This document shows, in pieces, positions 621 to 12,721 of a stretch of 36,534 bases of DNA. This DNA comes from an uncultured virus (IMG/VR IMGVR_UViG_3300044646_001664) (Duplodnaviria > Heunggongvirae > Uroviricota > Caudoviricetes), in IMG/VR virus record IMGVR_UViG_3300044646_001664; one strand, given 5' to 3'. Position numbers and translations under genes: made by a program. The notes below the pieces were generated by a model, which saw only the letters and a list, made by a program, of their open reading frames with translations, made no database searches and was not told the DNA's origin. Every line of letters begins with the position of its first letter. The stretch's first letter is position 1.

Positions 621-1048
621 GTATTTTTTATTTCTGATTCACTTGGCAAAAACTTTTTTAAATCTTTATATGCAGAAGATATTTTTTTCATACCCACGTT
701 TAAAGGATTGCCTTCTTGTATAGAACTAAAATCATCAAAATAACTAATAGTTGGATCAACCTCTTCAACAAATTTGGTCAAACCTTTTTGAACATCCTCA
801 ATGTATGTAAAAGCCCAGTCACGAGAGTCTGATAGAAATTTAATAAAGTTTTCTCTGTGTATGTCATTATCAGTTAACTCTTGATTTGCTTTAATAGATT
901 CAGCATCTTGATTAAGTTTAAAGTTTTCTAAAAATAATTGAGCGGAAGTTAGACTAAGTTTTTTTAATTTATGCAATATCGCTAAATACGATATAGCAAA
1001 AGAAACAGACAACACTATAAAAAATATCAACAAACCATTTTGCATCAT
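617..1048 (-). CDS. Hypothetical protein with N-terminal TM helix
   Basis: 143-aa ORF with a hydrophobic N-terminus, translationally coupled on both sides. Confidence 0.7.
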   Translation of the reverse strand: MMQNGLLIFFIVLSVSFAISYLAILHKLKKLSLTSAQLFLENFKLNQDAESIKANQELTDNDIHRENFIKFLSDSRDWAFTYIEDVQKGLTKFVEEVDPTISYFDDFSSIQEGNPLNVGMKKISSAYKDLKKFLPSESEIKNT

Positions 1049-1539
1049 ACTACCCCCAATAAACTCTTCTCAATATGCGTTGCCCAATAGTATAAACATT
1101 TATCACAACAAGGTCTATTATACTCGTTCTTAGTGTCCATGTAAAACTCAGCATAGTAGATAGGGTCCTTACGATATAAGTTAGCCCTGTGAGTGATATT
1201 TACACGGTTTATGTGAGAAGGCTTGTTCCAGACTGGCTTACCAGTACCCCAAATCTGCCCACAAACAGCCTCTAGAGCCTCTATATTGGCTTCGTTCTTA
1301 TCTGTCCTTATACCCCTTGCCTTGGCCTCTTTAATCATGACCTTAGCATAGTTACGTAATGACCATTCAGCATTTTTCCACATCAATACCGCTGGATGAT
1401 TGCGCCATGCCCCTGATGGGGACTTTCCAGACAAAACCTTAAGTATCTGATAGGCTTCTAATATCTGTTTATTTAATCTTTTATTGTCTAATATTTCTGC
1501 ACACTGATCATAATCTTTATAAGGTAGGAAGGTTTGCAT
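1045..1539 (-). CDS. Pyrimidine-dimer DNA glycosylase/endonuclease V-like protein (MSMEG_6728-like)
   Basis: MQTFLPY...LDNKRLNKQILEAYQIL...WRNHPAVLMW and HRANLYRKDP motifs. Confidence 0.8.
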   Translation of the reverse strand: MQTFLPYKDYDQCAEILDNKRLNKQILEAYQILKVLSGKSPSGAWRNHPAVLMWKNAEWSLRNYAKVMIKEAKARGIRTDKNEANIEALEAVCGQIWGTGKPVWNKPSHINRVNITHRANLYRKDPIYYAEFYMDTKNEYNRPCCDKCLYYWATHIEKSLLGVV

Positions 1540-1769
1540 TACCTAATAGCCTCCCTAGTAATCATTACGATTGCCCCATTATCCTCTAAAGCCTTTTTTA
1601 CTCTTACCATATATTCTACAGCATGTCGCTTCTCTGTGTCAAATAGACGCATAAACATATCCTCATTAGCCTTAATGGTTATAAAATGTTCGTTATCAAT
1701 AATTTCTACCTTGAAATTTTTAGGGGCTGGAATAGAATGAAATGCCATTTTCATTTTATCTGTATACAT
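1539..1769 (-). CDS. Hypothetical protein
   Basis: Likely start MYTDKMK at 1769 (TAATG coupling). Stop overlaps the next start. Confidence 0.65.
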   Translation of the reverse strand: MYTDKMKMAFHSIPAPKNFKVEIIDNEHFITIKANEDMFMRLFDTEKRHAVEYMVRVKKALEDNGAIVMITREAIR

Positions 1770-1972
1770 TATTTTCTTCCCCATTGGATATAGTTCCAAC
1801 CACGCTCATGTGCGTAGTATATAAATATTTTAACAACCGTTTCCCAAAACGCAATTGTTACAGAAAGAGCAGCGTTTTTTGTTATAACATAGGCAACAAC
1901 AACAGATGAAAGAGTTCCCCATATGCGATAACTTACTGCTTTCGCAAATGATCTTGCTCTAGTTACTTTCAT
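1769..1972 (-). CDS. DUF2061 family membrane protein
   Basis: RSFAKAVSYRIWGT ... KIFIYYAHERGW ... WGR signature. Confidence 0.8.
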   Translation of the reverse strand: MKVTRARSFAKAVSYRIWGTLSSVVVAYVITKNAALSVTIAFWETVVKIFIYYAHERGWNYIQWGRK

Positions 1973-2040
1973 TATCTATATCTTCCTTAAACATACTTTT
2001 AACAAATCTATCTTCTGCATCTGCAATACCTTGGCCAAAA

Positions 2041-2799
2041 TTAAATACCCAATTCTTTACGCTTTTCAGTAGCCGAAATAGCATGAATCTTTGCCCCCAA
2101 ATCTACTTGTTCAATCTTGTATCCAACATCACGACCATAAACAATGTTTGTAATGTTAGGTAGTCTTAGTACTAATGCACCATCCATAAATTTATCCTTG
2201 GCAATATATTCTTTTACCTGATCAAATTTTAGTGGATCTTTCTCACTTGTGTTGTATGTATTTCGGACTCCAAGTAATACTTGATCAGTTCGTTTACCCG
2301 CTTCTTTGTATAAAGCATGATGACCTTCATGCCATGGCTGATATCGACCAAGCATTAACGTTGTTGGTGCAGACCAATCATGTAAATTAAACTTTTTAAT
2401 CAGGTAGTCTACCTCTTGTTCAACTGTGTAGTCTGCTGGAATCCTTGCATCAAAATCTGTTGGGTCTTCCCACATCTTGTTGGTATCTTCAAATTTACCC
2501 TGTTTAATTCGGTCTACCCAAACCAAAACGTCTGGCTTACCAAATGCTGCACGAGTAAGATTAGTTGGACAAATAAAGTCTACAATGACTGGAGCAACGT
2601 CTTGTTTAGAAATAACTCTAGCAATTTCTCCTAGCCTGCGTGCATGTTCAATTCTATTTTCTATGGAAAATCCAAGGTCAGAGTTAATAGTTGCTCTAAC
2701 TTCATCAGCATTAAGATGAATAGCATTAATGCGCTCTTTAAGTGTTTTTGCTAGTTCTGTCTTGCCAGAGCCAGGTAAACCAATAATTTGTATGATCAT
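2041..2799 (-). CDS. cysC: Adenylylsulfate-kinase-like domain fused to an HxGH nucleotidyltransferase domain
   Basis: N-terminal GLPGSGKT P-loop, NADEVR and DLGFSIENRIEHARR (CysC-like). C-terminal LGRYQPWHEGH and ISATEKR (cytidyltransferase-like). Confidence 0.75.
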   Translation of the reverse strand: MIIQIIGLPGSGKTELAKTLKERINAIHLNADEVRATINSDLGFSIENRIEHARRLGEIARVISKQDVAPVIVDFICPTNLTRAAFGKPDVLVWVDRIKQGKFEDTNKMWEDPTDFDARIPADYTVEQEVDYLIKKFNLHDWSAPTTLMLGRYQPWHEGHHALYKEAGKRTDQVLLGVRNTYNTSEKDPLKFDQVKEYIAKDKFMDGALVLRLPNITNIVYGRDVGYKIEQVDLGAKIHAISATEKRKELGI

Positions 2800-2800
2800 T

Positions 2801-3085
2801 TTATTTTTCCATTGTTAAAGATTGCCAAGTGATTGACCAGTCTTGTTTGGTTTTATGTTTGTTAAACTCTCTGGACACTTCTCCACCCTCTAAGTATACC
2901 CCACCCCAAACACCCCACTCTTTACCAGAAATTCCTACCGCAAAACATGTTTTTGCTACTGGACATTGCTGACACATTGAATCAACAATTGCCCTACCAG
3001 ATTCGTTGTCTTCATATTTATCAAAATAAATATTTGTATCAAGACCTAAACAAATTGCGTCATCTTTCCATAAATGCTGTTTCAT
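2801..3085 (-). CDS. whiB: WhiB family Fe-S transcriptional regulator
   Basis: W..DAIC...C..CPV...C four-Cys pattern and GVWGG motif. Probable start MKQHLW at 3085. Confidence 0.9.
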   Translation of the reverse strand: MKQHLWKDDAICLGLDTNIYFDKYEDNESGRAIVDSMCQQCPVAKTCFAVGISGKEWGVWGGVYLEGGEVSREFNKHKTKQDWSITWQSLTMEK

Positions 3086-3087
3086 AA

Positions 3088-3297
3088 TTACTCTCGATAC
3101 TTGTTTGGTATATCCCACCCATTACGACCAGGAGAATAAACTTTGTGGATGTACCACTTATCTTTAACTCTAATACCCATTGGAGATGTTTTTGCAATGT
3201 CAGATTCTTTTAAATCAATAACATCCCAACCATTCCAAAGTAAATTACTATTTTTGGAAATAATTTTTTCCATAGTATTCAAACTTCTAATAAACAT
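3088..3297 (-). CDS. Hypothetical protein
   Basis: 69-aa ORF with a G-rich SD-like tract upstream. Trp-rich (WNGWDV, NGWDIP). Confidence 0.65.
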   Translation of the reverse strand: MFIRSLNTMEKIISKNSNLLWNGWDVIDLKESDIAKTSPMGIRVKDKWYIHKVYSPGRNGWDIPNKYRE

Positions 3298-3306
3298 AAA
3301 TACCCC

Positions 3307-3657
3307 CTAGTATTTAAATATACCAACTTCTACATTTTTTAACTGTGCCTCTGAAACTAATTTTGAAGTTTTTTCATTAGGCTTACTTAAGAAAGCAAAG
3401 TAGTTAATTTGATCTAAATTTTCTTGCATCCAAACTGGAGCAACTTTATAAAATTTAATCTTTTTTCCTCTTGCTTTCATTCCTCTTTCAGATAAATTAG
3501 AAAACTCAGAAACAAAAGAATTTATTTTAGCAGGACCAGCAGAGTAAATTACAAACTCTGTATCGTCTTTATGCATGTTTGACATGGCAACACCCATAGA
3601 GCGAATGAATACGTTGTAATCATTAAACTCACTTGTGCCCTGAACTGCCACGATCAT
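3307..3657 (-). CDS. Hypothetical protein, possibly SLOG/DUF2493-like
   Basis: MIVAVQGTSEFNDY resembles the (V/I)AGSRxFxDY start of YspA/DUF2493 SLOG proteins. The family call is tentative. Confidence 0.45.
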   Translation of the reverse strand: MIVAVQGTSEFNDYNVFIRSMGVAMSNMHKDDTEFVIYSAGPAKINSFVSEFSNLSERGMKARGKKIKFYKVAPVWMQENLDQINYFAFLSKPNEKTSKLVSEAQLKNVEVGIFKY

Positions 3658-4048
3658 CTCTTTTTCCATCTCTTAAACTATCTAATATAAAAAGCATTTT
3701 ATCTAAGTCACCTTTTGATAAAGTACTAGTATCTATTGGTTTAGCGGTGTGGCGTTGTACCTCACCGTCTACAGCCTCTGCAACATAAAAAATATGATTA
3801 GATATCCAATATGCTTCGTTGCCTAAAACAATAACCTTAATCATACCCTTTTCTTTATGTTTTGTCAATTGAGAAAGGTTTTCTTGGTTATTGGATAAAT
3901 TCATAGAAAAAAATGATTTCAATAACCTATGCGTATCACTTTGTTTATGCAAGGTTCTTGAATAAGGTTTTTTCTTATTACTTTTACCTACTTTAAGTAT
4001 AAACCAAGCAAGAGCCAATGTCAAGCCTAAGACTATTAACTCTTGCAT
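3629..4048 (-). CDS. Hypothetical protein with N-terminal TM helix
   Basis: 139-aa ORF with hydrophobic residues 4-19. Confidence 0.65.
   Translation of the reverse strand: MQELIVLGLTLALAWFILKVGKSNKKKPYSRTLHKQSDTHRLLKSFFSMNLSNNQENLSQLTKHKEKGMIKVIVLGNEAYWISNHIFYVAEAVDGEVQRHTAKPIDTSTLSKGDLDKMLFILDSLRDGKRDDRGSSGHK
3996..4024 (-). promoter_or_regulatory. Sigma70/SigA-type promoter inside a CDS
   Basis: TTGACA-N17-TATACT on the minus strand. Confidence 0.6.
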
Positions 4049-4061
4049 TATTTAGACCCAT

Positions 4062-4220
4062 CTACTTTTTAATTGCTGGCTTTGCTTCTACTGAATCTTC
4101 AACAGACATAGTCCTATTTAACTTTATTTGCATTTGCAATAAATTAAACTCAAGATCTGAAGATTTTTGTCTATAAAATAAAACTAATTGATTTAATTCT
4201 TCAATATTTAAGTCCTCCAC
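4062..4220 (-). CDS. Small coiled-coil hypothetical protein (52 aa, absent from the ORF track)
   Basis: GTG start after AAGGGG. MEDLNIEELNQLVLFYRQKSSDLEFNLLQMQIKLNR... fills the gap between neighbours. Confidence 0.6.
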   Translation of the reverse strand: MEDLNIEELNQLVLFYRQKSSDLEFNLLQMQIKLNRTMSVEDSVEAKPAIKK

Positions 4221-4224
4221 TTTT

Positions 4225-4596
4225 TTACCCCTTTCTTAAATTAAATGGGCTATCTGCCCAAACCTTTTCTACTTGCTTTTTTTCTCTTTCCACAATTGCA
4301 CGGCTCCAAGAAAATCCTGCATCTCCACCCCAAGCATCCCACATAATTCTGCCATTAGAGGGAAATTCTGGACCATCATAAAAACCTTTGCCTTTTTTAT
4401 CTACTTCGTGACGGGAAAAGAAAGAAAACATTCTTTTAACAGTACTAAGAGACATTGCTGATCCATTTACAATATCAGTTGCACGACCCCAGCCTACTGG
4501 AGTTCCTGCGCTAGTTGCCTTACCATCTTCTTTCCACTTCAATGCACGACGAGCAGCAGCCTTCATACCAGAAGTAGGAGTGTATGTATCAGCCAT
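4225..4596 (-). CDS. Conserved phage protein (often found near head genes)
   Basis: GTPVGWGRA..I, SLSTVKRMFSFFSRHE and GRIMWDAWGGDAGFSW motifs. Start MADTYTP. Confidence 0.7.
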   Translation of the reverse strand: MADTYTPTSGMKAAARRALKWKEDGKATSAGTPVGWGRATDIVNGSAMSLSTVKRMFSFFSRHEVDKKGKGFYDGPEFPSNGRIMWDAWGGDAGFSWSRAIVEREKKQVEKVWADSPFNLRKG

Positions 4597-4699
4597 TTTT
4601 CTTATCCCGTTTTTGTTGTTTAGCAACACGTTTTTCTTTAAGAGTCATTTTAGGCTCTTTTTTTGTATTAGCATTACCCTTTTGTTCTTTATTTGCCAT
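4589..4699 (-). CDS. Very basic 36-aa peptide
   Basis: MANKEQKGNANTKKEPKMTLKEKRVAKQQKRDKKNG. AGGGG SD upstream; overlaps both neighbours. Confidence 0.5.
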   Translation of the reverse strand: MANKEQKGNANTKKEPKMTLKEKRVAKQQKRDKKNG

Positions 4700-4829
4700 T
4701 AGTTACCCCTGCCTTTGTTTTTGGATACGGACCAAGATCTGTTTTTATGGTGCCGTCTTTTCTTAAACGAACAATCCTACCATTTTTTATTTGAGTAGGA
4801 TTGAATGCTGTTGTTTTTTTCTTTGTCAT
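4689..4829 (-). CDS. Basic 46-aa hypothetical protein
   Basis: MTKKKTTAFNPTQIKNGRIVRLRKDGTIKTDLGPYPKTKAGVTNGK. TAATG coupling to the upstream gene. Confidence 0.55.
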   Translation of the reverse strand: MTKKKTTAFNPTQIKNGRIVRLRKDGTIKTDLGPYPKTKAGVTNGK

Positions 4830-5626
4830 TATTTCTCAAACCTTAAAGGATTAAAAGATCCATCCCAAATACTTTTTGTTGTAGATTGTGATTCTGACTT
4901 GTATGTACCGCCACGACGCTTATATTCTTGTACTACCCAAGAATTTGCTACTGCAGATGGATAAACGTCAAATTTATCTTTTGCTGCTTGCACAACTCTT
5001 GCATATAGTTTAGGATCTGATGGTGTTGATCCACCCCTACGTGGTTTAATAAAATCTCCATAGTTAGGTTTTGCTTTTGCCATTTCATTTTCCATTTCTT
5101 TTAGTTTGTTAACTGGAACGCAATTAGGAACCATGCGTCCACCTTTTTCTTTCATGCCACGTTGTTCATATCCAACCCAACATGCTTTTGTCATGTTATC
5201 CCACTTGTCTTCATCTTCATTATCTGAGTTGTAGGATTTACTTACCTGAACAGCATACATATTTTCCATATCAGATTGCGATGGCATTGTTGGAATACCA
5301 GTTCTATTTGATCCCATTTCTACAACCATGTCAACTGAAACAGATAGTGATTCAATTTTTATAACTTCTGACATGCGATGATAAAAAACATATGCCTGTT
5401 CTTCCCATGCGCCATCTTCTTCTTTATAAGCACGAACAATAACTGGTTTGTCATCTTCAGCATATTCCATTGAGTATTCAGAACCAGGAAGACCAAGTAA
5501 ACCAGGATTAGTCATAACATATTCAATACGACCAGCCATGATGCCATCATCCTCATGAACAAACATAACAAAGTCACCCTCTGCTACCATTGATTTTGAA
5601 ATTGGCACATTTTCATTTACTGACAT
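4829..5626 (-). CDS. Modular phage protein (SH3-like N-domain, CWxGY..VPNCVP motif, DUF5872-like C-domain)
   Basis: AGGAGG SD. Contains ACWVGYEQRGMKEKGGRMVPNCVP and DPKLYARV...YPSAVANSWVVQEYKRRGGTY. Confidence 0.65.
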   Translation of the reverse strand: MSVNENVPISKSMVAEGDFVMFVHEDDGIMAGRIEYVMTNPGLLGLPGSEYSMEYAEDDKPVIVRAYKEEDGAWEEQAYVFYHRMSEVIKIESLSVSVDMVVEMGSNRTGIPTMPSQSDMENMYAVQVSKSYNSDNEDEDKWDNMTKACWVGYEQRGMKEKGGRMVPNCVPVNKLKEMENEMAKAKPNYGDFIKPRRGGSTPSDPKLYARVVQAAKDKFDVYPSAVANSWVVQEYKRRGGTYKSESQSTTKSIWDGSFNPLRFEK

Positions 5627-5655
5627 AAAACCTCCTAGGCTATATATAGATTATA

Positions 5656-5991
5656 TCAGGCTTTAGGATTCAAAAGCCGTATGATTTCAAAAAGATTCCA
5701 CCTGTCTTTTTTAGATAAACCCTCTACTGCATCACGATCAAAAGCCTTTTTAGATAGGGTAATAATGGGTTCTGAAGCAAAAAAGTCTATCTCTAAAAAC
5801 CCTTTTTCCCATAATTTCATAACACAAGAGTTAACGTCTGTTATATGTTCATTGTATAGATCTGGCATAAGATTTTTAATCTTAGGAGTAAAAGAATATA
5901 AAAGTTCTCCAGTTTCTTGGTCAACCCCTACAGTTTCTAATCCACCATCAAGAATAAGTTTTTCAATCATTTTTTCTTCTTCGTTATTCAT
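5656..5991 (-). CDS. Hypothetical protein
   Basis: Probable start MNNEEE at 5991, overlapping the thioredoxin stop. Confidence 0.65.
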   Translation of the reverse strand: MNNEEEKMIEKLILDGGLETVGVDQETGELLYSFTPKIKNLMPDLYNEHITDVNSCVMKLWEKGFLEIDFFASEPIITLSKKAFDRDAVEGLSKKDRWNLFEIIRLLNPKA

Positions 5992-6241
5992 TTCCAATAA
6001 ACTCCAATAATGATTGTTTGGTCTGTGATCCAATTATTTTATTAATCTCTTTACCGTCTTCAAATAAAATAAATGTTGGCACAGAACGAATTTCAAAAGT
6101 TTTAGCCATTTCATTTTCTATATCTACATCAACTATTTGAAAAATACCAGGAAAGTATTCCCTATTTAATTCTTCAACAATTGGCTTTACTTTTTTACAA
6201 GGCTGACACCAGTCTGCCGTAAAGTAAAGTATTGATTTCAT
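5984..6241 (-). CDS. trxA: Thioredoxin
   Basis: FTADWCQPCK active site and the IRSVPTF cis-Pro motif. Confidence 0.9.
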   Translation of the reverse strand: MKSILYFTADWCQPCKKVKPIVEELNREYFPGIFQIVDVDIENEMAKTFEIRSVPTFILFEDGKEINKIIGSQTKQSLLEFIGNE

Positions 6242-6648
6242 TTGCCAGACTTTACTCTAGCCTTTTTTAATACTTCAAAATCTTTAATCTTGGTTTCGCC
6301 AAGGTATCCCCAAGCATATCCATCATTAATCATTTTATTATTAATAGACTCTGATTCTCCATTAATGTATAGCCAGCCAAGAATACGACCATACTTTTCA
6401 GATGAATTCATCTTTTCTGTACGAATAACTACAGACTTTGCATCCTTAAGTTGTTTCTTTAAATATTCTTTAGATTCAACACCAAGTACCTTTTCAACCT
6501 TATCTGTTGTACGTGATTCTGGAGTATCAATACCAGCCAAACGAACACGGGATGAGAATAGAATATCAAACCCTAAATCAATAATTACGTCAATAGTATC
6601 TCCATCAACAACGTTTTTTACTTCTTTAACAAAATACTCATACATCAC
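6238..6648 (-). CDS. Thermonuclease (SNase-like) protein
   Basis: VVDGDTID, RVRLAGIDTPE, KYGRILG and GYAWGY motifs. Confidence 0.9.
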   Translation of the reverse strand: MMYEYFVKEVKNVVDGDTIDVIIDLGFDILFSSRVRLAGIDTPESRTTDKVEKVLGVESKEYLKKQLKDAKSVVIRTEKMNSSEKYGRILGWLYINGESESINNKMINDGYAWGYLGETKIKDFEVLKKARVKSGK

Positions 6649-6902
6649 ACTGCCCCAATCGCTCTATTTTCAACTAACTTTTCACGCTCATCAAGAACCT
6701 CTAACATAAAAGACATCATCTTTGCATATGACTCAGGATTATTCATTATCTTATCGTAGTGATGACTACAAAACATTAGTTCTCCAGAAGCCCCTTTGAC
6801 TTTGACTAATGCTTGTGCTTGGCATGTATCACAACGATCTTTTGCATCTAAAACCCATTGCTTTGGCTTTACGCTTGGATGATCTTTTAATATGTTTGTC
6901 AT
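6645..6902 (-). CDS. Small Zn-binding hypothetical protein of actinobacterial type
   Basis: DRCDTCQAQA...LMFCSHH (C2-C-H pattern). Confidence 0.65.
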   Translation of the reverse strand: MTNILKDHPSVKPKQWVLDAKDRCDTCQAQALVKVKGASGELMFCSHHYDKIMNNPESYAKMMSFMLEVLDEREKLVENRAIGAV

Positions 6903-6917
6903 AGTACTATTATATCG

Positions 6918-7091
6918 CTACTTTCTGTTGTCTGTTGAATAAAATCCACTACCGTTGAAAATTGCAGTAGGAGCACTCCAAAGTCTTTGCATAGATTGAT
7001 TACAGCATACTGGATATTTTTCTTCATCAAATTTTTTTTCAAACTCAATTTGTGAAGAACAAACAGAGCATTTGTAATCATATCTTGGCAT
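6918..7091 (-). CDS. FmdB-like zinc-ribbon protein
   Basis: MPRYDYKCSVC...PVCC..M.R..S...FNGSGFYSTD. AGGAG SD precedes the ATG at 7091. Confidence 0.85.
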   Translation of the reverse strand: MPRYDYKCSVCSSQIEFEKKFDEEKYPVCCNQSMQRLWSAPTAIFNGSGFYSTDNRK

Positions 7092-7114
7092 TAATTCTCC
7101 TATAGTTATATCTA

Positions 7115-7143
7115 AGTATATCAAATAATAGGCAGTTTTACAA
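7115..7143 (-). promoter_or_regulatory. Candidate promoter for the FmdB-like gene
   Basis: TTGTAA-N17-TATACT with an extended -10 TG. Confidence 0.55.
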
Positions 7144-7157
7144 CATGCCTAGGTTGT
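7129..7157 (-). ncRNA. Candidate H-type pseudoknot (or terminator hairpin) 3' of hsp20
   Basis: ACAAC-C-TAGGCA-T-GTTGT-AAAAC-TGCCTA gives stem 1 ACAAC/GTTGT and stem 2 TAGGCA/TGCCTA. Confidence 0.5.
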
Positions 7158-7161
7158 TTAT

Positions 7162-7581
7162 TTATTTTATTTTAATTACTTTAGGTTTCTTGTCTTCAGG
7201 AACAATACGAACAATATTAACTGTAAGCATGCCATCCTTAAGTTCAGCACTAGATACTTCCATGTATTCACCAAGAGCAAATGTGCGAGTAAATTTACGA
7301 GCAGCAATTCCCTTATGAACAACTTCAGCATCTGTTACTTCTACTATTTCACCTTTAATTATTAATGTTCCATTATCTACTGAAACATTAATATCTGTTT
7401 TTGAAAATCCAGCAACAGCCAAAGATAATCTGTATGTATCTTCGTCTAATTTTAAGATATCGTATGGCGGATATGCCTGACGAGTTGCTAGATTGTGTAC
7501 TGTACTTAAACGGTCCAATTCACGATTGAAACCAATAAAAAATGGATCCTTAAAAAGATCCAATGCAAACGAACTTACCAT
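7162..7581 (-). CDS. Small heat-shock protein (Hsp20/IbpA-like)
   Basis: YPPYDI, LAVAGF, HKGIAARKFTRTF and AELKDGML motifs. Confidence 0.95.
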   Translation of the reverse strand: MVSSFALDLFKDPFFIGFNRELDRLSTVHNLATRQAYPPYDILKLDEDTYRLSLAVAGFSKTDINVSVDNGTLIIKGEIVEVTDAEVVHKGIAARKFTRTFALGEYMEVSSAELKDGMLTVNIVRIVPEDKKPKVIKIK

Positions 7582-7632
7582 TTTTTCTCCTTTTCAGCGA
7601 GTTAGTTTATGTATCCCCTGTAGGCAGATACA
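7582..7632 (-). promoter_or_regulatory. ROSE-like RNA thermometer candidate in the hsp20 5'UTR
   Basis: CTCGCT-GAAA-AGGAG hairpin sequesters the SD and has a bulged G. It is preceded by hairpin TGTATCT-G-CC-TACA-GG-GGATACA. Confidence 0.6.
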
Positions 7633-7637
7633 ATCTT

Positions 7638-7646
7638 ATTATACCA
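7638..7646 (-). promoter_or_regulatory. Extended -10 promoter of hsp20
   Basis: TGGTATAAT. The predicted TSS near 7631-7632 coincides with the first leader hairpin. Confidence 0.65.
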
Positions 7647-7654
7647 AATTTTAG

Positions 7655-7726
7655 TACCCCCAAGGGGAATTGAACCCCTGTTACCACCGTGAAAGGGTGG
7701 TGTCATAACCACTAGACCATGAGGGC
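7655..7726 (-). tRNA. tRNA-Glu(UUC)
   Basis: GCCCTCA...CCACC-CT-TTC-AC-GGTGG...GGTTCAATTCC...TGGGGGT-A cloverleaf. CCA not encoded. Confidence 0.92.
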
Positions 7727-7730
7727 ATAG

Positions 7731-7801
7731 AGCGGATAGCGGGAATCGGACCCGCACATTAACCTTGGCAAGGTTACGCACTACCACTATGCAATATCCG
7801 C
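7731..7801 (-). tRNA. tRNA-Gly(GCC)
   Basis: GCGGATA...TAACC-TT-GCC-AA-GGTTA...GCGGG-TCCGATT-CCCGC-TATCCGC-T. CCA not encoded. Confidence 0.9.
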
Positions 7802-7802
7802 T

Positions 7803-7878
7803 TGGCTGGGCTGGAAGGATTCGAACCTACGACATATGGATTAACAGTCCACCGTTCTGCCAACTGAACTACAGCCCA
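7803..7878 (-). tRNA. tRNA-Asn(GUU)
   Basis: TGGGCTG...GTGGA-CT-GTT-AA-TCCAT...GGTTCGAATCC...CAGCCCA-G-CCA. Confidence 0.92.
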
Positions 7879-10114: not shown

Positions 10115-12721
10115 TTATCTCCTTCTTCTAGGTGCAGTAGCAACAATTAATTGACCAGCAATAATTGTTACAACTACAATATCTTCTGCTTTTTCACGTT
10201 CTGGTATAGACATGTCAGCACCCATGCTGAGTAAGGCTTTACCCAACTCACATTTTTGCTCTTCTGTCAAACCTTCAATTGCTTCATCTGGATTAAAACA
10301 AGTAGCAACCGCATCTAATAATGCTGCTGGACTTTCTAATACAAGCAATGCTGAAGCCACCTCTGCAGTAATAACCACAGGGTTACCGCTAGCATCTTCT
10401 CTTACTTCTACTGGAATTAATGGTGGAAGGTCACGATATTCAAGTCCCGCCGATTCTATGTTTGCAGCAGTTACGGGTGTTCCTTCTGCTGATGTTACCA
10501 ATACATCTGCAACTAGATCCTTTTCTGCTAAAGTAAATTTACCGTCTTCAGATAAGGCTTCAGATAAATTAACAACTTCTGCAGTTGTTATTTCTCCATC
10601 TGCAGATAACATTTCTGTAATAAAATCTGCTTCTGATTCTGTTAGTCCGCCTTCTGATAATACAGATGAAACTTCTGCAGCAATTTCTTCAGATACCTCT
10701 CCGCCCTGAGCAATTGCTTCCAATACTTCTGAAACTTCAGATGCATCTAAACCACTATCTGCAACTAAATCACTAACTATGTCTTGTATTTGTTCTACAG
10801 ATAAGGTATCATTATCTTGTGCTATTTCTTCAAAAGAATCCTGATTTTCTTCAAGAATACTTTCTAGTTCATCGTTGGATGAAGATTCATCAGATTCAGG
10901 TGTATCCGTTTCGGGAAATTCAGTTTCTTCAGAAGGCACTTCTTCAACAGGGACTTCTTCCACAGGAGTTTCCTCTACAAGAGTCTCTTCTGTTTCTGTA
11001 CTCTCCTCTTCAGTTAGAGTGGTCTCGTCTGGTAAAGTTTGTTCAGGCGCATAAATAAAAGATGGTTGTGAGGGAGCCTCAATAATTTCTTCTTCTGGTG
11101 CGGGTATAGAAATAACAACTTCTGTATATTCACTTACAGGTCCAGACCAGTTAGCAATTCTAACAGTATAGGTAGAGCCTTCTGTCAAACCAGTTAGTTC
11201 TATAGATTCTGGAGCGCCGTCTGTATTATAAGTGCCACCCTCATATGGATTTTCTGCATCTGGATCATTCGTTATTACTTGATAAAACCAAGTATTGGCT
11301 GTGTATCCTTCTGGCAATTCAGGCGTAATAACAACTGTCGTTCCTTCAATTACTGGTTCTGATAACACTGGGGCTGGAGTAGGAATATGACTATTAATTG
11401 CTGTAATTAACTCTTGAGCATTTGTATTTAATTGTGTTTGTAAGTTTGTCTTACTAGATACCGCTGAGTTTACGACATTAGTTAAAGATGTTGTATTAAT
11501 AGCATTTATTGCTGATGTGTTTGTAGTATTTTGAGCAACTACTGGAGTAAGGCTTGAGTTTAACTGTGCAATAGTTGCATTTGCTGCATCAACTGCTGCT
11601 TGAACTGTTTCTGTGTTTGGATCTACATACGGAGTAAATGCTGCACCTTGACTTATTTGTCCAGCAAAACCTGTTCCAACATTAGTATCTGTAATTGGAA
11701 TAAGTGCGCCATTGGCTGTTTCTCTAACATTAAATCTTGCTTGATCTGGTATTGGTCCTGTTGCAGTAACATCTGCTATCCATGCACCATCGTTTGGATT
11801 TACATCAGCATTAAATCTTATTTGAACCATCTGTGTAGAAGCGTCTTGTTGTGGAAATGGGCGAAGGTCCCAAGCAATATCTAAACTTGTTCCAGTAGTT
11901 GCATATGTAATTCCTGTTCCTGTACTCCAAGTTGTCCAGTCCCATCCTGCTATAGATACTGATGGTGCGTCTGGAGTTTGATAATAAACCCATCCTTCAT
12001 TTACGCCAAATGTAATTGTTGCATTTGATCCTACATAAACATTGTTATAGAGAGTCCCACCCATTAATAAATTAAACGGTAGATTCATAAGAACACCAGC
12101 ATCATCTACTCCAGCCAAAACATTTGTGCTAGTTCCAATCGTGGCTTGCAAATCATTTACTGCTGTCTGAGCATTATCAATTGCAATGTTGGCTTGAGTT
12201 AACTCGGTTTGTGCTGTGGCCTGTGCGGTTGTTGCTGTTGTTTTTGCTTCAACTGCTTCAGATATTTGTACTTGTGCAGTTGATGTGTCAATATTATTTA
12301 TAGAGGTTTGTGCTGTTGTAATTGTATTTTTTGCATCTATAACTATTTGAGAACTTTGATCTATTGGTGTAACAGATAAATCTACAGAACTAATTGTGGC
12401 TGTTGCTGTGTCTACTAAGGCTACGTCTAATTGTGCTACTGCTACTGTGGCTGTCACTGTATCTACCGCTGCCTGAGCCTCTACCCTTTCAGCAACTGCT
12501 ACTGTTATGGTGGCGGTGGCAGTGTCCGTGGCTGTAATAGCCTGTTGAACCTCTGTAGTGGCTGTTGCAAGGGCTGTATTAACTGCTTGTTGAGCAGGGC
12601 TTACAACAACTTGTTCTTGATTTTCTGTAGCATGAGCACGATCAGGAGCCATTATCCCAAAAATTGTTAAACACAACCCTACCCCAAAGGCTAATACTAG
12701 TCTTCGTTTAAGGTTAGTCAA
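10115..12721 (-). CDS. Large secreted acidic surface protein (868 aa)
   Basis: Signal peptide ending AHA; Ala/Thr/Gln coiled coils; beta-rich domain (LPFNLLMGGTLYNNVYVGSNATITFG); FN3-like LTGLTEGSTYTVRI; Glu/Pro linker; hydrophobic C-terminus plus RRRR. Confidence 0.75.
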   Translation of the reverse strand: MTNLKRRLVLAFGVGLCLTIFGIMAPDRAHATENQEQVVVSPAQQAVNTALATATTEVQQAITATDTATATITVAVAERVEAQAAVDTVTATVAVAQLDVALVDTATATISSVDLSVTPIDQSSQIVIDAKNTITTAQTSINNIDTSTAQVQISEAVEAKTTATTAQATAQTELTQANIAIDNAQTAVNDLQATIGTSTNVLAGVDDAGVLMNLPFNLLMGGTLYNNVYVGSNATITFGVNEGWVYYQTPDAPSVSIAGWDWTTWSTGTGITYATTGTSLDIAWDLRPFPQQDASTQMVQIRFNADVNPNDGAWIADVTATGPIPDQARFNVRETANGALIPITDTNVGTGFAGQISQGAAFTPYVDPNTETVQAAVDAANATIAQLNSSLTPVVAQNTTNTSAINAINTTSLTNVVNSAVSSKTNLQTQLNTNAQELITAINSHIPTPAPVLSEPVIEGTTVVITPELPEGYTANTWFYQVITNDPDAENPYEGGTYNTDGAPESIELTGLTEGSTYTVRIANWSGPVSEYTEVVISIPAPEEEIIEAPSQPSFIYAPEQTLPDETTLTEEESTETEETLVEETPVEEVPVEEVPSEETEFPETDTPESDESSSNDELESILEENQDSFEEIAQDNDTLSVEQIQDIVSDLVADSGLDASEVSEVLEAIAQGGEVSEEIAAEVSSVLSEGGLTESEADFITEMLSADGEITTAEVVNLSEALSEDGKFTLAEKDLVADVLVTSAEGTPVTAANIESAGLEYRDLPPLIPVEVREDASGNPVVITAEVASALLVLESPAALLDAVATCFNPDEAIEGLTEEQKCELGKALLSMGADMSIPEREKAEDIVVVTIIAGQLIVATAPRRRR

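Follow-up and report, generated by a model that had tools for sequence, protein, structure and literature searches.

A mobile phage cassette joins a trimmed CysC kinase, a minimal HxGH nucleotidyltransferase and DUF2061 in a candidate PAPS synthase

A 36,534-nucleotide stretch of DNA from an uncultured tailed phage (IMG/VR record IMGVR_UViG_3300044646_001664; this whole stretch is hereafter called the window) carries two consecutive genes, one encoding a 252-residue protein in which a CysC-type kinase is followed by an HxGH nucleotidyltransferase (2041..2799, from an ATG start and with the stop codon included), the other a 67-residue, two-helix membrane protein of the family DUF2061 (1769..1972; Pfam E = 9.5e-16). 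These and all other window features for which we give coordinates lie on the minus strand. Comparison with the nearest complete phage revealed that the two genes form an accessory cassette, present or absent as a unit (1776..2800). We propose, with somewhat better than even confidence, that the cassette is a minimal and probably membrane-associated synthase of 3'-phosphoadenosine 5'-phosphosulfate (PAPS) that feeds sulfotransferases, in which the sulfurylase step would fall to the small nucleotidyltransferase domain. A preliminary description of this DNA had pointed to the fusion gene and the DUF2061 gene behind it; both open reading frames (ORFs) are present and their domains match Pfam.

Results

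A two-domain protein widespread in viruses

The fusion protein matched PHROG 10255, annotated 'kinase', from end to end (E = 1.3e-58), and a large protein collection held 5932 relatives at E <= 1e-3; together, these relatives and the full-length match put the observation far beyond chance. Among cluster representatives there were 3015 matches, of which 85 reached E <= 1e-30. Twelve of the 18 matching records from cultured phages had full-length copies, at 35-38% identity. Carriers include Xylella phages Sano, Salvo and Bacata, Stenotrophomonas phages DLP_6, Suzuki and Bhz60, Clavibacter phage 33, and Xanthomonas phages AhaSv and Seregon. An AlphaFold2 (AF2) model of the fusion protein, built on 50 relatives, reached a predicted local distance difference test score (pLDDT) of 95.9 and a predicted template modelling score (pTM) of 0.87.

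The two domains also occur together in more-distant viruses. At 80 further viral loci, we found 66 fusions, eight pairs of split but adjacent genes, five transferases without the kinase (two of these at contig ends and three fused to DUF2061) and one locus with neither domain. The reversed domain order exists as well (fusion P0267). In many other proteins, the kinase half has the membrane domain DUF4118 as its fusion partner, in parallel with the fusions to DUF2061 described below. In two T4-like marine phages with clamp loader, RegA and family-B polymerase genes (L145 and L148), the module consists of overlapping genes for a 139-residue kinase and a 116-residue mini-transferase; it lies directly after the polymerase gene, with an MT-A70 methyltransferase gene next. 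Six loci had a second cytidylyltransferase-like gene (132 residues, Pfam E = 1.4e-18; L161:789-1184), which was the first gene after the module in five of the six.

The kinase domain is a trimmed CysC homologue

The kinase domain spans residues 1-139 (2383..2799), as placed by hhalign profile alignment and structural matches. The Pfam profile APS_kinase covered residues 2-84 (E = 1.7e-13), with only positions 4-90 of its 152 aligned. Compared with 16 canonical CysC ORFs from bacterial loci, the kinase half gave an hhalign probability of 99.8% (E = 1.7e-27, 135 columns). The sole long gap in this alignment, of 18 residues, fell exactly at the CysC lid (E-RD-KGLYKKAR-G-IK), which places the deletion site at G101/K102 (2494..2499) and confirms that the RDPKGLY lid is missing, as the preliminary description had supposed.

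Outside the lid, the active-site architecture of CysC is largely recognizable. The P-loop GLPGSGKT (residues 7-14; 2758..2781) satisfies the Walker A pattern GxxGxGK[ST], and residues 30-49, NADEVRATINSDLGFSIENR (2653..2712), were aligned column by column by hhalign with the acceptor-site stretch LDGDNxR...LGFS..DR of CysC. Across 50 relatives with identities down to 32%, K13 and R35 were invariant, and G7, L8, G12, T14, D32, F44, R49, P78, R83, D105 and T106 were at least 90% conserved. We take D32, R35, F44 and R49 to be the residues to which the literature assigns roles in binding adenosine 5'-phosphosulfate (APS).

Structure prediction gave the same picture, with CysC as the nearest fold, when the kinase half was put to the comparison that the preliminary description had suggested. 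The top match in the VIA structural scan was Mycobacterium tuberculosis CysC (4rfv_A; Z 18.3, root-mean-square deviation (rmsd) 1.6 Å over 127 residues, 29% identity), and the next families were gluconate kinase (Z 15.4) and the shikimate kinases (about Z 13). All of the Foldseek matches listed were APS kinases or bifunctional PAPS synthase/ATP sulfurylase entries containing an APS kinase. From the hhalign alignment, the fold, the conserved residues and the lid gap, the kinase half is a true but trimmed CysC homologue.

The nucleotidyltransferase domain is a minimal member of the HxGH superfamily

Residues 140-252 (2044..2382) form a minimal HxGH nucleotidyltransferase domain, identified by Pfam, AF2 and PDB profiles. 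Pfam CTP_transf_like matched residues 149-187 (E = 2e-4, 22.0 bits against a cut-off of 21), and this profile, the motifs and fold matches at Z 8-9.3 assign the domain to the HxGH nucleotidyltransferase superfamily (PF01467 clan). Modelled by AF2 in isolation, the 113 residues reached a pLDDT of 94.8.

The domain has three conserved motifs. In GRYQPWHEGH (residues 151-160; 2320..2349), the G, Q and both H residues were invariant and R, P and G at least 90% conserved among 57 sequences. The family signature YGRDVGY (residues 221-227; 2119..2139) has G222, R223 and G226 invariant, and as a search pattern it recovered 526 viral relatives. The C-terminal motif ISATEKR (residues 241-247; 2059..2079), which we take to be of the ISxTxxR type, has I241 and S242 at least 90% conserved and R247 invariant in the 50 relatives. 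Over the whole half, G151, R152, Q154, P155, H157, G159, H160, R179, P214, Y221, G222, R223, V225, G226, Y227, I241, S242 and R247 were invariant or nearly so, and four conserved arginines surround the active-site motifs.

By sequence, the domain is nearest to NadM and the archaeal nicotinamide mononucleotide adenylyltransferases (NMNATs) and lies outside the Sat family. NMNATs in the PDB matched profile positions 141-219 (E = 1.2e-11 to 1e-7), and these alignments ended before the invariant YGRDVGY. Scores fell short of the NMNAT equivalog cut-offs (25.5 bits against 127 for NF002243; 21 against 181 for TIGR01527), and at 113 residues the domain is some 60 residues shorter than NMNAT chains (164-181 residues). 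Pfam Sat (PF01747) had no match on the fusion protein, which lacks the QTRNPxHxxH block and has GRYQPWHEGH instead. We considered whether YGRDVGY could be the GRDHAG loop of Sat; this equation is unproven, hhalign did not align the two in a comparison with 18 genuine Sat ORFs (one of them confirmed against the PDB, E = 1.5e-113), and we do not use it as evidence.

The best structural matches of the mini-domain in the VIA scan were phosphopantetheine adenylyltransferase (PPAT; 4nah, Z 9.3), NadM (2qjt, Z 9.1), archaeal NMNAT (1f9a, Z 8.9) and cytidylyltransferases (about Z 8.2); Thermus ATP sulfurylase (1v47_B) matched at Z 8.0 (rmsd 3.0, 109 of 113 residues, 20% identity). Foldseek returned no match at E <= 1e-3 for the mini-domain alone. 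Set against Sat and NMNAT by structure, as the preliminary description had suggested, the domain thus proved to have an HxGH-type fold, with PPAT, NMNAT and Sat tied.

DUF2061 recurs beside genes of PAPS metabolism

The DUF2061 protein of the window matched PF09834 at 58.4 bits (cut-off 23.1) over profile positions 2-52 of 52. Its two helices form a hairpin, the charged ends of which are invariant (R7, S8, K11 and R16; Y52, H55, E56, R57, W59 and W64). A DUF2061 ORF came next on the same strand after the fusion gene in 75 of the 80 related viral loci; the distance was 108 nt or less in 64 of these, and in 14 the two ORFs overlapped by 4 nt. Of the five loci without it, two end at a contig edge. 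No other neighbour held a fixed position in these loci.

Fusions and adjacencies tie DUF2061 to PAPS metabolism in other genomes too. At L111, L112 and L115 (192 residues), DUF2061 and the mini-transferase share one chain. Two cellular loci, L171 (Caldisericaceae) and L228 (Aquificota), have DUF2061 joined to an APS-kinase-like domain, with the gene for canonical CysC following immediately. In Ginsengibacter (L200), it lies between cysC and a gene that is CysQ-like as judged by eye only, and in P0345 its fusion partner is an Inositol_P domain annotated as CysQ. The simplest reading of these adjacencies and fusions is that DUF2061 tethers sulfate-activation enzymes to the membrane or is their partner there. 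Judging by titles, the literature on DUF2061 holds no paper on its function.

The kinase-like paralogues fused to DUF2061 in L171 (7749-8519) and L228 (7788-8516) keep the lid but read LDSKEVR and IDSSYIR, with the second Asp of LDGD lost. From these sequences, they may be membrane-bound CysC forms that are non-catalytic or of altered specificity. Three genes after the Sat gene of L228 lies a 292-residue ORF (11777-12655) in which FRSGTTYIW and IIRDPIEVYLS resemble sulfotransferase motifs by eye; the hidden Markov model (HMM) of phage sulfotransferases gave no match to this ORF.

Sulfotransferases accompany the module in phages and in a bacterial family

In protein P0170, the fusion partner of the mini-transferase (49% identical) is a complete, lid-bearing canonical CysC (Pfam E = 5.7e-63, positions 2-151 of 152). 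An OCS116-type marine bacterium carries this type of fusion on its chromosome, in the cellular context of a POT transporter, a carboxyltransferase and an RTX protein. Four of 25 genomes of the OCS116-type family, which are incomplete, had a CysC-like gene, and each of the four was a canonical CysC fused to the mini-transferase; Sat was found in none of these 25 incomplete genomes. PAPS_reduct gave weak, partial matches in five of the 25 (19.5-30.5 bits, profile positions 1-94 of 175), to ORFs of 312-432 residues that may be other PP-loop ATPases. Sulfotransfer_3 proteins were present in five of the 25 genomes; in two of these (G002 and G034) they share a contig with the fusion, at a distance of 7-16 kb.

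Among viral loci, searched with a profile of phage enzymes, 32 of 160 had a sulfotransferase in the flanks, among them 15 of the 80 loci from the lineage of the window. One cluster of 195-residue neighbours, identified as Sulfotransfer_2 (E = 6.3e-10), occurred in 17 of 80 loci and was the first gene after the module in 10. Of 17 sulfotransferase candidates tested, 15 matched Pfam sulfotransferase families, 14 of them above cut-off. The aligned phage enzymes keep HIPKTxGTSI and an invariant R-x-P-x-x-R-x-x-S, which are presumably the two PAPS-binding motifs. When seven large cassette-bearing contigs were chosen regardless of sulfotransferases, four had one, including two of the three that are at least 90% complete, and phage DLP_6 carries the fusion together with an annotated sulfotransferase. 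No canonical Sat was found in the 160 viral loci; as a control, 39 matches were obtained in bacterial loci.

Far from the cassette in related genomes, sulfotransferase genes lie directly after fibre-like (fn3/Gly-rich) genes and beside homologues of 2-oxoglutarate (2OG) oxygenases. Another lineage has an Asp/Asn beta-hydroxylase-like gene before the module and a sulfotransferase gene after it.

Upstream of the fusion in phage Sano (L001, 4957-5996) are gp33 and then gp34, an NADAR-domain protein (E = 6.4e-26); gp33 homologues were found in 11 of the 12 cultured-phage records with the full fusion. We do not count gp33 as a sulfotransferase, the match being a hint only: Sulfotransfer_4 scored E = 4e-4, below its cut-off, TPST1 matched the same stretch at E = 1.3, and the phage-sulfotransferase HMM gave no match.

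The cassette is present or missing as a whole

The nearest complete phage, G001 (109,757 bp, with terminal repeats), is 96-97% identical to the window on both flanks of the cassette; window positions 1544-1775 align with 58578-58347 and 2801-7646 with 58353-53503. G001 is without exactly window positions 1776-2800, which hold both genes, and its flanks are joined with 7 nt of shared letters. The search for sulfotransferases and for PAPS reductase in this cassette-less phage found neither. G001 has several fibre-like genes with fn3 and Gly_rich_2 domains, and a glycan toolkit comprising an epimerase/dehydratase, Glyco_trans_1_2, a Stealth-like protein, a GlcNAc transferase and a methyltransferase.

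The window stretch was contained in 20 DNA runs from lake water. In two of four runs examined, metagenome contigs with the joint 1768->2801 co-occurred with contigs identical to the cassette; the anchor of this joint is only 23 nt, so the support that it lends to a mobile unit is modest. Other joints near 1770 in lake contigs (1709->2807, 1772->3009 and 1773->3245) have short anchors and inserts of undefined content. The region near 1770 suggests a hot spot for the swapping of alternative small genes.

Window and neighbouring genes

The window covers part of a tailed-phage genome and encodes a terminase, a DnaE-type polymerase, a primase, a helicase, tail proteins, WhiB and three tRNAs; no close cultured relative was found at the DNA level. 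The WhiB-like transcription factor (2801..3118; Pfam E = 3.8e-11) is encoded directly upstream of the cassette, and the presence of this gene points to an actinobacterial host. Further neighbours are an 86-residue ORF without an assigned family and, by profile match, a Pyr_excise/MSMEG_6728-family gene similar to pyrimidine-dimer DNA glycosylases (1045..1539). The latter is a second indel relative to G001, in which window positions 1045 and 1544 abut, and a homologue is also found near the fusion gene in phage DLP_6. The preliminary description had placed a glycosyltransferase-like gene next to the cassette and had tentatively linked the enzyme to it and to glycan or DNA modification; no such gene is there, and the window offers no support for a link to it or to DNA modification. 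The tRNA cluster at 7654-7878 comprises Glu-TTC, Gly-GCC and Asn-GTT, the tRNA-Asn being 90-94% identical to that of Erwinia and Salmonella jumbo phages. Next to these genes, G001 contains about 1 kb of additional DNA.

Discussion

The proposed route from sulfate to PAPS would run along a single polypeptide. The C-terminal 113-residue HxGH domain would adenylylate sulfate (ATP + sulfate -> APS + pyrophosphate), and the N-terminal, lid-less CysC-type domain would phosphorylate the 3'-OH of the resulting APS to give PAPS, pulling the unfavourable adenylylation of sulfate forward from its position on the same chain. The DUF2061 hairpin may tether the enzyme to the membrane or partner it there. 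PAPS would then pass to sulfotransferases, which many related phages encode themselves and which the host may supply for the window phage. Because sulfotransferase genes of related genomes stand beside fibre-like and 2OG-oxygenase genes, the likely end use would be to sulfate structures of the phage or the cell surface, and not to help the host make cysteine.

The preliminary description had suggested a tiny enzyme making PAPS, and this suggestion holds up in part. The context speaks strongly in its favour, through the fusion of the mini-domain to canonical CysC, the sulfotransferase neighbours, the links of DUF2061 to CysC and CysQ, and a bacterial family with sulfotransferases in which Sat was not found. 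Several results weigh against it. The nearest solved relatives of the mini-domain by sequence profile are NMNATs (1f9a, E = 1.2e-11; 2qjt, E = 1e-10; 1ej2, E = 2.9e-9), which agrees with the earlier observation that its HxGH motif is closer to the NMNAT type. Compared with the Sat ORFs, it aligned over 22 columns around HxGH only, at an hhalign probability of 11.5%, so it is not a classical ATP sulfurylase; sulfate adenylylation is the step of the suggestion that we can only infer. The near-tie of PPAT, NMNAT and Sat in the VIA scan means that the fold does not assign its substrate. In the kinase half, LDGD of CysC reads LNAD (LNADEVR), with the first Asp lost while the second, D32, and R35 are kept, and the score against the NCBIfam CysC model TIGR00455 (52.7 bits) is below the cut-off of 138.7; judged from its sequence, with the lid also lost, catalysis by this half is not assured. 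The sulfotransferase association is incomplete as well: 128 of the 160 viral loci had none in their flanks, the 90%-complete, cassette-bearing G006 was without one, and in the incomplete OCS116-type genomes the fusion and a sulfotransferase coincide in only two. The preliminary description had advised looking for sulfotransferases elsewhere in the genome, and the phage-sulfotransferase profile found none within the 36.5-kb window. Finally, the Aquificota locus L228 has a classical Sat after its DUF2061-kinase-like gene and CysC, so DUF2061 does not require the mini-transferase.

A narrower account, which we consider unlikely, leaves the kinase alone at work on sulfate: it would convert host APS, made by CysDN or Sat, into PAPS, and the HxGH domain would have an NMNAT-type, other adenylylating, nucleotide-binding or regulatory role. 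The NMNAT profile matches of the mini-domain and its lack of profile similarity to Sat fit this account, and so do kinase halves that stand alone; Ralstonia phages phiRSL1 and RsoM2USA have them, as do numerous metagenome proteins. It sits poorly with the joint occurrence of the two domains, fused or split but adjacent, in 74 of 80 diverse viral loci, with the existence of both domain orders and with the invariant catalytic motifs of the mini-domain. The OCS116-type family, which fuses the mini-domain to a canonical CysC and in whose 25 genomes Sat was not found, counts against it as well, and no NAD-salvage partner was seen among the 43 neighbour-cluster representatives scanned. A quite improbable alternative does make NAD the product: in a reversed NadR-like salvage enzyme, the P-loop domain would be a nicotinamide riboside kinase and the HxGH domain would form NAD+, for example against NAD-depleting defences. 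The GRxQPxHxGH motif, the profile matches to NadM, archaeal NMNAT and NadR, and the NADAR-domain gene directly upstream of the fusion in phage Sano speak for such an enzyme. The kinase is, however, specifically CysC-like (Z 18.3), with no NadR ribosylnicotinamide kinase among the 50 VIA matches listed, most of them APS kinases, and NadR matched its P-loop only (6gye, E = 1.7e-4, positions 3-30). The NMNAT alignments, moreover, stop at profile position 219 short of YGRDVGY in a domain some 60 residues smaller than NMNATs, and NAD salvage would leave the links to sulfotransferases, CysC and CysQ unexplained.

The product could also be another 3'-phosphorylated, adenylylated cofactor, reached by CoA-like chemistry (PPAT-type adenylylation followed by 3'-phosphorylation), or an analogue of PAPS, which we find marginally less probable still. 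APS kinase and dephospho-CoA kinase both phosphorylate the adenosine 3'-OH, and this shared chemistry, with PPAT as the top structural match of the mini-domain, gives the idea its appeal; yet PPAT, NMNAT and Sat lie within about one Z unit, no CoA-pathway genes were seen among the neighbours, and both the canonical-CysC fusion and the sulfotransferase neighbours point to sulfate. Least probable to us is that at least one of the domains has no catalytic activity and acts as a scaffold or nucleotide-binding regulator, as the APS-kinase-like domain of fungal ATP sulfurylase does. For this speak the missing lid, the lost first Asp of LDGD and, in the DUF2061-linked CysC paralogues of L171 and L228, which stand next to a canonical CysC, the loss of the second Asp. 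The phage modules are accompanied by no other CysC or Sat, and K13, D32, R35, R49, HxGH, R223 and R247 have stayed invariant or at least 90% conserved in relatives of down to 32% identity; both points speak against dead domains.

Returning to the proposed PAPS synthase, we also put forward a bolder version, tentatively and with slightly less than even confidence: the NMNAT-derived domain of 105-113 residues would be a third, hitherto unrecognized class of ATP sulfurylase beside Sat and CysDN, and, with DUF2061 as a membrane subunit dedicated to PAPS metabolism, would form the smallest self-contained PAPS synthase known, mobile among phages of many hosts and used for fibre or surface sulfation. 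If the mini-domain does activate sulfate, it would be a new enzyme class for a textbook reaction, and a PAPS synthase of 252 residues could be useful for PAPS regeneration in situ. The proposal would also provide a first functional context for DUF2061, and could explain the use of sulfotransferases in streamlined marine bacteria without Sat and CysDN. A common and highly transcribed auxiliary metabolic gene (AMG) of freshwater and marine viruses, 'cysC', would then serve phage or cell-surface sulfation and not the supply of host cysteine.

In the passages on viral cysC of the COBRA paper (PMC10914622), cysC-annotated genes of freshwater whiB-encoding phages are described as highly transcribed in a lake and interpreted as an AMG of assimilatory sulfate reduction. 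The window gene very probably belongs to the class described in those passages, which refer to neither a second domain nor DUF2061; the word 'sulfotransferase' does not occur in the main text. Our literature searches found no description of a phage APS kinase-nucleotidyltransferase, of an NMNAT-type ATP sulfurylase, or of phage sulfotransferases, PAPS or tail-fibre sulfation.

Among characterized systems, NodPQ/NodH and RaxPQ/RaxST provide a dedicated supply of PAPS beside tailoring sulfotransferases, using CysDN/CysC-type enzymes. The cassette would follow the same logic of a private PAPS supply, with the first step falling to a new and much smaller domain. Human PAPSS1/2 (PDB 1x6v) and the Sat-CysC fusions of Aquifex (2gks) and Thiobacillus (3cr8) likewise combine an APS kinase and an HxxH-type adenylyltransferase on one chain; PAPSS shares the kinase-then-transferase order of the phage protein, and the kinase halves are homologous. 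These enzymes have about 550-630 residues, compared with 252 here, and differ in that the phage kinase is lid-less, the mini-domain is NMNAT-like without similarity to the Sat profile, and DUF2061 is added as a membrane partner. With CysC itself (PF01583, TIGR00455), the kinase half shares the fold, the P-loop and the acceptor-site stretch with D32, R35, F44 and R49, whereas the 18-residue lid deletion, LNAD in place of LDGD and scores below the NCBIfam cut-offs set it apart. The mini-domain has in common with NadM and the archaeal NMNATs (1f9a, 1ej2, 2qjt and 2qjo) the GRxQPxHxGH motif, the ISxTxxR-type end and the first three strand-helix units, but it has its own signature, YGRDVGY, and is coupled to an APS-kinase-type domain and not to a Nudix or nicotinamide riboside kinase domain. 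By function, the nearest known systems are thus the PAPSS-type and Sat-CysC enzymes; by descent, the two halves are CysC and an NMNAT-like HxGH domain.

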